A stretch of 64,000 bases of DNA from Escherichia coli. GTDB lineage: Bacteria; Pseudomonadota; Gammaproteobacteria; Enterobacterales; Enterobacteriaceae. Every line of letters begins with the position of its first letter. The first letter of the stretch is position 1. The position numbers are program-made. Positions 1 through 3,000 of this stretch are shown one piece after another. The stretch lies in the NCBI RefSeq assembly GCF_017348835.2, contig NZ_CP072315.1; one strand, given 5' to 3'.

Positions 1-3000
1 AGGTAACAACTTCTAATGCAGGACTTTAATAACTCTAAGGGATTCTACATGAAAAAAGACGATCTAATTACGCGTTGTAAATTACTTAAAGGCGAACGCG
101 ATGAGTCTATCTTTACCATATTAATTGGGATAGTAGTAAAGCTGGGGCTGGTAGGCCTGGCATTCTATCTGTTGCTTGGTTCCACGATTGATTGGTCAAG
201 CTGGAAAACTTATGCCGCCATGTTGATCTTGGGAGCATTTCTCTAAAATCTTGAACCTTTTTTCACTCATTACAAGCCATGACCTAGTGCGTAGATCATA
301 CGATCTTTAAACCTTATGTCATTGATTTATAAGTACATATAACAAAGATTATGTTAAATACTGTATGTATGTACAGCATCAACAGTTGCCCCCCTCATAT
401 TGAGGTAATTGCTACATTCATACCACTATTCTTCTTATAGTATCGACATCCTGAATTATTGCACCCTACTGCTTTGTCTTTAGCTGTTCCGAATTAAAAT
501 TCATTGCTCAATTTGGATCACATGACGATCAGCGTATTCCTTTGCTTTATCAAAGTTAAGTTTTTAAAACATAAGATATGTAATGACAAATTCTCAATCT
601 GATTTTCCTTTGAACGATCAAAATTTTCAGGCAGATTTGCTGAAAATCAAAAAGGTTTTCGCCGACCTTATAACGCAGGCATCAGATGGTAAGATACCCA
701 TAAGGTCTTCTCATGTACACGGCTTACACCATTTCGAGGAGCTCTACATCCGGGCAAGAGCAGGCATGTGTTCGGTCCTGGGATATCCGGTCATGGTTGT
801 TTCAACTATCTCAGTTAAAGAGCCCGGCACAGGCATTTTTAGAGCGCTTCTTGCAGAATTGAAATGTATTGCAGATGAACAAAATTACATTTTGAAAATT
901 GAAAATGTACTGCCTCCCCTATTCCGCAAATACCTTATTCAAGAAGGTTTTGTTTTCCCAGGTGAACCTTGGATGTGTGGTTCCGGCTATTGGTTTAAGA
1001 ACCCACAAGTACTTCATGAAAATATTGAGTTATTATCTGTTTAAGTCGATCTAACAATTTCACTGGAGCTAACATGTCCCCGGAATTGGTATCAGACATT
1101 GCAAGAGTGGCGCATGAAAAGCTACTTTCAATTTTAACGGAGTGCGGCATAGAGAAGACGGCAGGCACTTGCCTTTTTGCAAGCTATCTTGTGTGTTATT
1201 TAGCAAAAACTAAAGGTCTAGATGCTGTTGTCCGTGGGGGTAACGGTGCAGATGATGGCGGTATATTTATAGAGTGTGGTGGCTTTGGCCATTATTGGTG
1301 TGAGTTGAATTTCGAAGAAGTGCAATATTATATTGACATCACTTCCGAACAGTTTGGGTTTCATCCATACATAGTGAAACTCGCCAACGATATAACAGGA
1401 TGGCCTCGATATATTCCTGGTGATCAGGAAACGGTCGATAGTCATTTAGAACAATTATTACGCGACGGCTATACAGAATAGGCTGCGTATACCCTATCGC
1501 AGCCTTTCAGGCTCTTAACCCTTGTGACCTGTTAACGGAACCACTCAGGATGACGCTGCCGATCAACTTTGATAACCTGCGAATTAAATTCAACGACATC
1601 CGCTGGAGTAAGCATTAATTCATCAGGATTTACAATAAATGGTCTTAAAACCACTTCGCCACCGTCTTCTTTTGCACCGTAGATATTAATAAGAAAGTGC
1701 AGTCGTTGATTTCCTTCAGCATTGCGTTGCCATTCTCTAAAAGTCAAAGTTTGTTTAATATAGTTTGTTAAAAGAAATGCGAATTCAGATTCTTCCGTTT
1801 GTGAGATACCGATTTTGTTAGACATTTTTTTTAGTATCTTTCCGAGCATGGACACACAGGCATCTAGACTTAACGATGTTGAAATTTTGGTCGTATTAAA
1901 ATCCTCCTGCGAAAGTGAAATCATCCATGTATTATCTTTATGATAGTCGGTAATATAAATAAAATGAGATGTAAAAGGCGTTGAGTGATTGAACTCTCCT
2001 AAGTTCCATCCATACTGACTCACTGTATTTGAGCTAAGTTCTTTGTCGGTAATGTTCATAATTCATACCTTTCGATAAAGTCTGTAATGATAATTAGCTA
2101 TCTCAAAGGACCAGAACAACTCTTGAAATAACCACACTCGAAGAATTTATCATATTGAACACCCCTACCTAATAACCTTGCCGACTTAATAAATCACAAT
2201 AGCCCTCCCCTGACATTTTAAAATGCTACTTGAATTTTTGATAGCTTATGGTTGTTTTATGTTCTTTGTGATACGCATATGTCATCTTCTCTTTCCAGTA
2301 CCAATCTTGTAGATCCTGCAAGTCTAGCCCATTTTTCTCACGTATGCTTTCGTGTAATTCGCTAAGCGCGAGTTTATCATTAGGTTTATAAATGGCTAAT
2401 TTTTCTTCAAATAAATCCAGCCAACGTTTCCCCATCTTACGACGCAAAACAAACACCATCGTGATAAATGTAATGAAATGCACAGCAATTAGTTCCAACT
2501 TATGCGATTGCTGACCAGATAAAATTACTATTGTAACAACAGGGATGGCCGTATATAAAGCAATCAAAGCGACCATAAGTTGGTATGGTTTTTCCCGTAT
2601 TACCATGTTCATGGGTAAACCAGAGGACGCTACTGCTTGCCAAAATCTTAAAGGGGAGCCCGCAGAATTCGGAAAAAATCGTACGCTAAGGTTTTCCGGG
2701 CATCCGTAAGGGCCGAAACTTCCCGTCTTCCAGTCTGCGGCTCTGCCGCCAGACGTAATCGCCGGTTAGGTTGATGTGCTCCCAGCCCAGCGGCGACAGG
2801 AATTGCAGCAGCTCGCCGTCCACCGGCTTGCCGGCCTCGACCAACCCCTGGGTGGCGCGTTCCAGGTACACCGTGTTCCACAGCACGATAGCCGCCGTCA
2901 CCAGGTTGAGGCCGCTGGCCCGGTAGCGCTGCTGCTCGAAGCTCCGATCCCTGATTTCCCCAAGGCGGTTGAAGAACACCGCCCTGGCCAGCGAGTTGCG

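Follow-up and report, generated by a model that had tools for sequence, protein, structure and literature searches.

The 64,000-bp stretch of Escherichia coli DNA analysed here (contig NZ_CP072315.1 of assembly GCF_017348835.2; hereafter the window) carries four small genes near its left end, next to a resistance island. A first-pass annotation had described them as an AT-rich block of two co-directional open reading frames (ORFs) facing two others on the opposite strand, had found nothing in it that could be named and had suggested a toxin–antitoxin (TA) or defence layout. The four ORFs and the 29-bp gap between the first two are confirmed by the ORF list, and the composition is as described: GC content is 0.32–0.43 across the block as against 0.54–0.68 in the adjoining transposon DNA, with the rise beginning at about position 2600. 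Scans of all four proteins against Pfam, NCBIfam, PHROG and PADLOC returned no significant family, in keeping with the lack of a name, and the RefSeq protein accessions of the block genes go unmentioned in the literature. As set out below, ORF1 and ORF2 can be placed as new families in known superfamilies, and the four genes are a part of the conserved backbone of IncHI2 conjugative plasmids but do not make up a single system. The genes are as follows.

583–1044, plus strand: ORF1, 153 amino acids, a minimal GNAT-fold protein and predicted acetyl-CoA-dependent N-acetyltransferase
1074–1481, plus strand: ORF2, 135 amino acids, a transglutaminase-like (papain-fold) protein consisting of this domain alone, with a predicted Cys33-His73-Asp88 triad
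1532–2059, minus strand: ORF3, 175 amino acids, a soluble protein conserved in MOBH-type plasmids (IncHI2, IncC and others)
2226–2612, minus strand: ORF4, 128 amino acids, a small membrane protein, predicted to have two transmembrane helices, that ends in a charged C-terminal tail of about 70 amino acids

By sequence comparison the four are real genes rather than chance ORFs, because diverged homologues (ORF1 down to 38–50% identity, ORF2 about 25–40%, ORF3 38%) keep conserved columns and because dN/dS is close to 0.3. The ratios, calculated by the Nei–Gojobori method between the window and an R478-like IncHI2 plasmid in which the backbone is uninterrupted (NZ_CP133279.1, locus L006), are 0.33 for ORF2, 0.32 for ORF3 and 0.30 for ORF4; they are based on small counts and are consistent with purifying selection.

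The suggestion that ORF1 might be GNAT-like is upheld by structure prediction and a fold search. An AlphaFold2 model built from a five-sequence alignment (pLDDT 79.6, pTM 0.77) is ordered helix, three strands, helix, strand, helix, strand, and contains the GNAT core fold (beta2-beta3-beta4-alpha3-beta5-alpha4-beta6). In GNATs, the loop between beta4 and alpha3 binds the pyrophosphate of acetyl-CoA. The corresponding motif A loop of ORF1, K79-E-P-G82-T-G84, which we take as an instance of the Q/R-x-x-G-x-G/A pattern, falls exactly between strand 68–78 and helix 85–100, the predicted beta4 and alpha3. All six full-length homologues retain G84; in the Klebsiella copy, N takes the place of G82. 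Since the predicted fold and the loop motif agree, we assign ORF1 to the GNATs as a minimal member of the superfamily, an assignment made on the model and the motif and without support from sequence models: there was no Pfam or NCBIfam match at E ≤ 1, the GNAT profiles included, and a profile search of PDB sequences returned nothing.

The top solved match in the fold search, ahead of dozens of other GNATs, was AcrVA5 (PDB 6IUF), an anti-CRISPR GNAT from mobile elements of Moraxella bovoculi that is the closest to ORF1 in size and architecture; the search also found matches within phage proteins of more than 1000 amino acids. AcrVA5 is a protein-acetylating enzyme. For ORF1 the expected reaction is the acetyl-CoA-dependent acetylation of an amine, with a protein lysine or N-terminus as the most probable acceptor. 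There are relatives of ORF1 in 1697 plasmid records, made up of IncHI2 plasmids and about 1040 Klebsiella IncHI1B/IncFIB plasmids (43–50% identity), and further ones in 53 jumbo phages, those of Erwinia, Dickeya and Yersinia (37–41% identity). The IncHI1-type copy on Salmonella plasmid NZ_CP053053.1 (L054 2725–3198) is a chimeric ORF of 157 amino acids, in which only ORF1 residues 89–153 are present behind an unrelated N-terminus; it lacks the acetyl-CoA loop, is followed by an ORF2 homologue and, from its sequence, is probably an inactivated GNAT.

In ORF2, the candidate Cys-His catalytic pair pointed out in the first-pass annotation proves to be part of a predicted Cys33-His73-Asp88 triad. 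The ORF2 model (pLDDT 96) has a transglutaminase-like/papain fold with the hallmark of the papain-like core, namely a Cys at the N-terminus of a helix that is packed on a beta-sheet bearing the His and an Asp or Asn. A word-indexed search found only 16 relatives, whereas an exhaustive profile search found 267 cluster representatives (E ≤ 0.001), nearly all of them stand-alone proteins of 130–170 amino acids. In an alignment of 103 sequences with 22–54% identity to ORF2, residues C33, G56, H73, W75 and F94 are invariant and R14, G31, D88, T90, Q93, Y113 and G116 are at least 90% conserved. The family motifs are T-x-G-T-C-L-[YF]-A, R-G-G-D-G-x-x-D-G-G, H-G-H-Y-W-V-E, V-D-I-T-A-D-Q-F-G and Y-x-P-G-D-Q-x-x-V-D-x-H. 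ORF2 itself has no Pfam match (the gathering score of Transglut_core is not reached), gives only chance-level hits in a profile search of PDB sequences and has no hydrophobic segment. A few of its relatives do show sub-threshold similarity to Transglut_core or Transglut_core3 (E = 0.0018–0.08, 13–16 bits as against cut-offs of 23–26), but no family member attains a Pfam gathering score.

On this evidence ORF2 represents a new family, as yet without a Pfam model, inside the transglutaminase-like/papain superfamily, with the Cys-His-Asp pattern intact. In Pfam terms the superfamily is the Peptidase_CA clan, which takes in Transglut_core (PF01841), BTLCP/LapG (PF06035), PF09641/2HLY and the SseI/PMT deamidases; among kin by fold are the arylamine N-acetyltransferases, factor XIII and other transglutaminases, protein-glutaminase, PeiW and SpvD. 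The ORF2 family differs in adding motifs of its own (RGGDG..DGG and Y.PGDQ..VD.H) and in consisting of a minimal domain (135 amino acids) that stands alone. The closest structure, 2hly, is of a protein without known function in which Ser replaces the Cys. The predicted triad would form an acyl-thioester intermediate, and the fold is compatible with peptidase, amidase, deamidase, transglutaminase or acyl transfer chemistry without discriminating between them.

Plasmid matches to ORF2 numbered 2090, including IncHI2, IncHI1-type, Klebsiella IncHI1B and Pseudomonas megaplasmids, and there were none in the cultured phage genomes searched. Genome contigs were scanned with a 25-sequence alignment as the profile query. 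An ORF2-type domain with the triad kept occupies residues 369–461 of a large ORF (L014 4894–8949) on a 191-kb IMG/VR contig (3300025534_000213), where it is directly followed by three stretches of ART-PolyVal ADP-ribosyltransferase (E = 3e-32). This ORF was called mechanically and its first 300 or so residues look non-coding. Other fusions join the ORF2-type domain to a methyltransferase-like domain (P0126, P0181), a Lar-like zinc ribbon (P0157, a weak match) and RMF (P0175). Distant alphaproteobacterial members adjoin housekeeping genes. Neither all-against-all clustering of the ORFs around 36 loci nor a Pfam census of 133 neighbouring ORFs found a constant neighbour, so the family, judged from its genomic distribution, is common on mobile elements without being exclusive to them and lacks an obligate partner.

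The first-pass annotation described a four-gene block. Comparison of the neighbourhood across related plasmids shows that the four genes are not one unit: they are shuffled, lost and replaced independently of each other. Adjacency of ORF1 and ORF2 is kept in an IncHI1-like contig (L002; 50% and 57% identity, 33-bp gap) and in pKAM622_2 (L051), and partly in L054. R478-like IncHI2 plasmids keep ORF2, ORF3 and ORF4 and have a trypsin-like protease gene in place of ORF1. In L006 (4915–5586) the product is a trypsin-like serine protease of 223 amino acids (Pfam Trypsin, E = 5e-9), and homology to the window breaks off 14 bp 5' of the ORF1 stop codon. At three loci (L004, L005 and L008) ORF2 lies behind an unrelated gene, and 180 kb separate the ORF1 and ORF2 homologues of Klebsiella plasmid NZ_CP138698. 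Jumbo phages carry ORF1 only, and ORF1 is also found without ORF2 in L003; conversely, ORF2 is found without ORF1 in L006, L004 and L008 and at 28 genome loci, and the genomes with ORF2 but not ORF1 include Pseudomonas, Burkholderia and Hydrogenophaga. Further combinations of the genes occur in L002, L003, L008, L009, L048 and L051. In the window itself ORF1 and ORF2 are probably co-transcribed.

ORF1 is more strongly associated with a second family of small proteins than with ORF2. Members of this family, which we call CHD-2, are 136–169 amino acids long, have invariant E-C-D-G-H-T, P-H-x-W and D-Y-R-L-R motifs and adjoin ORF1 in six lineages, in both gene orders (L002 6866–7321; L003 8660–9070; L046 4511–5020; L048 5425–5850; L051 2374–2843; L052 2516–3010). 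A search of the whole window found no CHD-2 gene. Two members scanned against Pfam gave no match at E ≤ 0.01, and the family profile gave nothing significant against PDB sequences. The spacing of the Cys, His and Asp residues resembles that in ORF2, and CHD-2 may be another papain-like thiol enzyme. An hhalign comparison of the two families aligned the helix after the Cys and the H-x-W motif sensibly, but at a probability of 4%, and we do not claim homology. In one further lineage (L053) ORF1 is intact and the CHD-2 gene beside it is almost wholly deleted.

As to its setting, the block does adjoin the island, as the first-pass annotation had it, but it belongs to the plasmid backbone and not to the island. 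Positions 300–2652 of the window (2.35 kb) are found at 100% identity in about 630 PLSDB plasmids, and about 430 further PLSDB plasmids are some 97% identical from position 1031 onward. The plasmids with the block are nearly all conjugative, 200–370 kb in size and typed IncHI2A/MOBH/MPF_F, and they come from E. coli, Salmonella, Enterobacter and Klebsiella; each record inspected gives all four genes as 'hypothetical protein'. On one flank lie the pco copper cluster, a DUF1173 gene, an orphan cytosine methyltransferase gene and a thermonuclease gene, and on the other umuDC and the Tra1 transfer region. Because the same sequence and the same flanking genes recur across IncHI2 plasmids, window positions 1–2634 are conserved IncHI2 (MOBH, MPF-F) conjugative-plasmid backbone abutting the resistance island rather than island cargo. 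Insertion sequence (IS) elements break up the block in several of these plasmids.

The boundary with the island was said to fall exactly at a Tn1721 inverted repeat (IR). A perfect repeat is indeed present, the Tn1721-type 38-bp terminal IR GGGGAGCCCGCAGAATTCGGAAAAAATCGTACGCTAAG at 2653–2690 (no mismatches, none expected by chance), and it begins 40 bp past the ORF4 start codon, so that the description is correct to within the spacer between the last gene of the block and the repeat. Collinearity with the uninterrupted R478-like backbone stops at 2634. The junction and the features to either side of the genes are listed here.

247–582, no strand assigned: AT-rich intergenic stretch 5' of ORF1, GC 0.32–0.37, in which a promoter is presumed to lie
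1045–1073, plus strand: ORF1–ORF2 spacer, 29 bp, holding the GGAG ribosome-binding site of ORF2
1480–1505, no strand assigned: hairpin between the convergent ORF2 and ORF3, AGGCUGCG...CGCAGCCU, with an 8-bp stem and a 10-nt loop
2635–2690, plus strand: backbone/island junction, 18 bp unmatched (2635–2652) followed by the 38-bp IR (2653–2690)
48079–48296, minus strand: remnant of a gene for a 1111-amino acid protein, its first 48 or so codons plus upstream DNA (blastn match to L006 10841–11058, 96% identity)

According to plasmid records, the ORF that starts at 2686 is a fragment of a Tn3-family (TnAs1/Tn1721-type) transposase gene. Inside the IR are two different truncated Tn3-family transposase frames (2686–3360 and 3436–4743), followed at 4784–5314 by an IS26-type transposase ORF that apparently ends early. 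The left end of the island is a mosaic of transposon fragments. A second copy of the Tn1721-type IR, with three mismatches and in the same orientation as the first, is found at 16972–17009, which fits the multi-IR structure of Tn1721-family elements within the island.

The R478-like plasmid also reveals what the island displaced. There, a gene for a 1111-amino acid protein (L006 7649–10984), ORF4 and ORF3 follow one another on one strand, with a 66-bp gap between the large gene and ORF4. The 1111-amino acid protein has no Pfam domain. Versions with 37–57% identity are found in IncHI-type plasmids (L002, L009 and L054), positioned between ORF4 and umuDC. At the locus in pSTM6-275, a tblastn search recovered only residues 1–48 of the protein. 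Since just the first 48 or so codons of the gene remain in the window, at 48079–48296, the island (2653 to about 48078) has taken the place of some 3.2 kb of backbone, in which most of the 1111-amino acid gene was lost. ORF3 and ORF4 would be the distal genes of a leftward transcription unit headed by that gene, and insertion of the island with the accompanying deletion took away most of the gene and the DNA upstream of ORF4. Because the upstream gene and the DNA 5' of ORF4 are removed, expression of ORF3 and ORF4 is likely to be altered here.

Ten homologues of ORF3 (38–81% identity) share 33 invariant columns, including H25, H32, D38, D53, H121 and H170. By tblastn, ORF3 has matches in 2326 plasmid records, among them the IncC backbone (39%). 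In IncC plasmid NZ_CP110913.1 (L050 4586–5107) the homologue, 38–39% identical to ORF3, belongs to an operon that encodes hypothetical proteins along with an S49 peptidase and DsbA, at a distance of a few kb from repA. With a homologue in the IncC backbone, ORF3 is a gene common to MOBH plasmids rather than an IncHI2 speciality. It loosely co-occurs with the 1111-amino acid gene (L006, L009) and with ORF2 (L006, L008, L048). A profile search of PDB sequences with ORF3 gave chance-level hits only, and the protein has no hydrophobic segment. ORF4 is the opposite-strand membrane protein that the first-pass annotation had noticed: it has two hydrophobic segments, at residues 10–34 and 37–57 (Kyte–Doolittle, 19-residue window). 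It is found in 950 plasmids, nearly all of them IncHI2 with identities of at least 95%, and can be regarded as restricted to this group.

Upstream of ORF1, the only sigma-70-like sites are weak and no more frequent than in shuffled sequences, and no clear promoter signal is seen. Inspection of the sequence places the Shine–Dalgarno GGAG of ORF2 6 nt 5' of its ATG, and a terminator scan found nothing between ORF1 and ORF2. The scan also misses the hairpin at 1480–1505, because its loop is 10 nt; in a folding computation this hairpin has a minimum free energy of -18.4 kcal/mol (z = -1.85) and could possibly act as a weak bidirectional terminator. An Rfam scan of positions 1–2700 (E ≤ 1) gave no matches. 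To the left of the block, at 16–246, lies an ORF of 76 amino acids with a single hydrophobic segment (residues 29–58). IncHI-like contig L003, though diverged elsewhere, carries it at 100% identity, and the R478-like lineage at 84%.

What might these genes do for the plasmid? Our preferred explanation is that all four are independently evolving accessory backbone genes and that ORF1 and ORF2 encode plasmid effectors that modify host proteins; taken as a whole, we would give it an even chance of being right. Both enzyme classes serve mobile elements as effectors on host proteins, ORF1 is found in megaplasmids and jumbo phages, and the ORF2-type domain is found beside an ART domain, all of which suggests that ORF1 and ORF2 would most likely serve to manipulate the host or counter its defences while the plasmid becomes established or is carried, with host proteins as their putative substrates. 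GNATs and peptidases recur as effector domains in the polyvalent proteins that phages and conjugative elements either deliver or express when they enter a cell, and are also known in solo form from plasmids and phages (Iyer et al. 2017, PMC5512222). The four peptidase superfamilies described in polyvalent proteins do not include a transglutaminase-like one (Iyer et al. 2017), a class that the architecture on the IMG/VR contig adds. The arrangement there, with the ORF2-type domain beside ART-PolyVal in one large phage-type protein, differs from that in the window, where ORF1 and ORF2 are solo genes. The uncharacterised families for which plasmid leading regions are enriched include N-acetyltransferase, AcrVA5-like and transglutaminase-like ones (Samuel et al. 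2024, PMC11541004). The AcrVA5-like candidate of that study is from Salmonella (contig AAEVVI010000002.1), and neither the ORF1 nor the ORF2 accession appears in its supplements.

A number of observations caution against making too much of this reading. Some 23 kb, including the trh transfer genes, separate the block from mobI/mobH, and it lies on the side facing away from the relaxase. The stretch 5' of ORF1, when folded as single-stranded DNA, showed nothing unusual (z = -0.9 on both strands) and no hairpin-rich, single-strand promoter-like element. ORF2 relatives are also chromosomal, and the similarity of ORF1 to AcrVA5 is what any minimal GNAT would yield. A stronger version, in which ORF1 would be an AcrVA5-like protein-acetylating effector of counter-defence or takeover, common to IncHI-type megaplasmids and jumbo phages, that works with ORF2 or CHD-2 as a two-enzyme module to disable a host immunity or stress protein chemically, we consider unlikely.

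Somewhat more plausible, though still doubtful, is a cooperating two-enzyme module in which ORF1 and an adjacent small thiol enzyme, either ORF2 or CHD-2, would act as writer and eraser or would carry out two steps on a single substrate, such as acetylation and amide cleavage or transfer. The 29-bp gap with its Shine–Dalgarno sequence and without a terminator speaks for such a module, as does the persistence of ORF1–ORF2 adjacency at 50–57% protein identity (L002, L051). A functional link between ORF1 and CHD-2 predicts adjacency that survives rearrangement, and ORF1 is indeed found beside CHD-2 (pattern ECDGHT...PHLW...DYRLRMW) in both orders in the six lineages. However, about 400 R478-like IncHI2 plasmids and other genomes have ORF2 without ORF1, the 36 ORF2 loci offer no constant neighbour, and the 180 kb between the two genes on NZ_CP138698 and the solitary ORF1 of the jumbo phages are equally awkward for a module, as are the survival of ORF1 in L053 and the low hhalign probability for CHD-2 and ORF2. 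An alternative that we regard as improbable, on a par with the AcrVA5-like scenario, has small molecules rather than host proteins as the substrates of ORF1 and ORF2, in an accessory metabolic or resistance function such as the acetylation of an antibiotic, polyamine or toxic amine combined with an amidase. ORF1 lacks the N-terminal strand and helix that usually form small-molecule pockets and is nearest in size and architecture to the protein-acetylating AcrVA5. Moreover, the genes for its relatives lie in jumbo phages and among hypothetical genes on plasmids rather than in metabolic operons, the AMRFinder/RGI annotation in PLSDB flags none of these genes, and the ORF2-type domain occurs within a polyvalent protein together with a protein ADP-ribosyltransferase.

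The layout that prompted the first-pass annotation to think of toxin–antitoxin or defence systems, an acetyltransferase paired with a small partner, would correspond to a GNAT toxin with a small neutralising protein (a type II TA system of the TacAT/AtaRT/KacAT kind) or to a defence system. This now looks most unlikely. The partner, ORF2, lies downstream of ORF1 and has an enzyme fold with a conserved predicted triad, and was rejected as an antitoxin; a GNAT-RHH antitoxin gene upstream of ORF1 was likewise rejected, there being no such gene in the 336 bp upstream and no DUF1778/RHH match, and so was obligate pairing, since each of ORF1 and ORF2 occurs without the other. Compared with the GNAT toxins TacT, AtaT, KacT and ItaT, ORF1 lacks about 20–30 residues of the toxin N-terminal region, and these toxins score below many ordinary GNATs in the ORF1 fold search. 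No protein of the block has a significant PADLOC or Pfam match: the only hit in PADLOC-DB was of ORF3 to PDC-M24A (13.8 bits, E = 0.009), with none for ORF1, ORF2 or ORF4. The presence of ORF1 alone in phages, and intact in L053 beside a deleted CHD-2 gene, would also be unexpected of a toxin. Least credible of all, in our estimation, is that the ORFs are decaying or non-functional remnants of the backbone kept only by linkage. Frameshifted or truncated copies are frequent in the databases (P0014, P0023, P0026, and pieces in L051), the block is split by IS elements in several plasmids, and ORF3 and ORF4 have lost their upstream gene here; against this, more than 600 plasmids carry identical intact copies, the families are conserved with invariant motifs at identities as low as 38–50%, dN/dS is about 0.3 and the ORF2 model is of high confidence.

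In one respect the outcome is ordinary: the block is IncHI2 backbone that is already ubiquitous, which will not surprise plasmid specialists, and a tempting toxin–antitoxin label has been removed as unsupported. IncHI2 plasmids are major carriers of mcr-1, extended-spectrum beta-lactamase and metal-resistance genes. Much of their backbone is annotated as 'hypothetical', and two of its genes have now been given a fold, together with a chemistry that can be tested. ORF1, which has relatives in jumbo phages as well as in more than 1600 plasmids, and ORF2, with some 270 clusters, are concrete candidates for studies of how these plasmids interact with their hosts.

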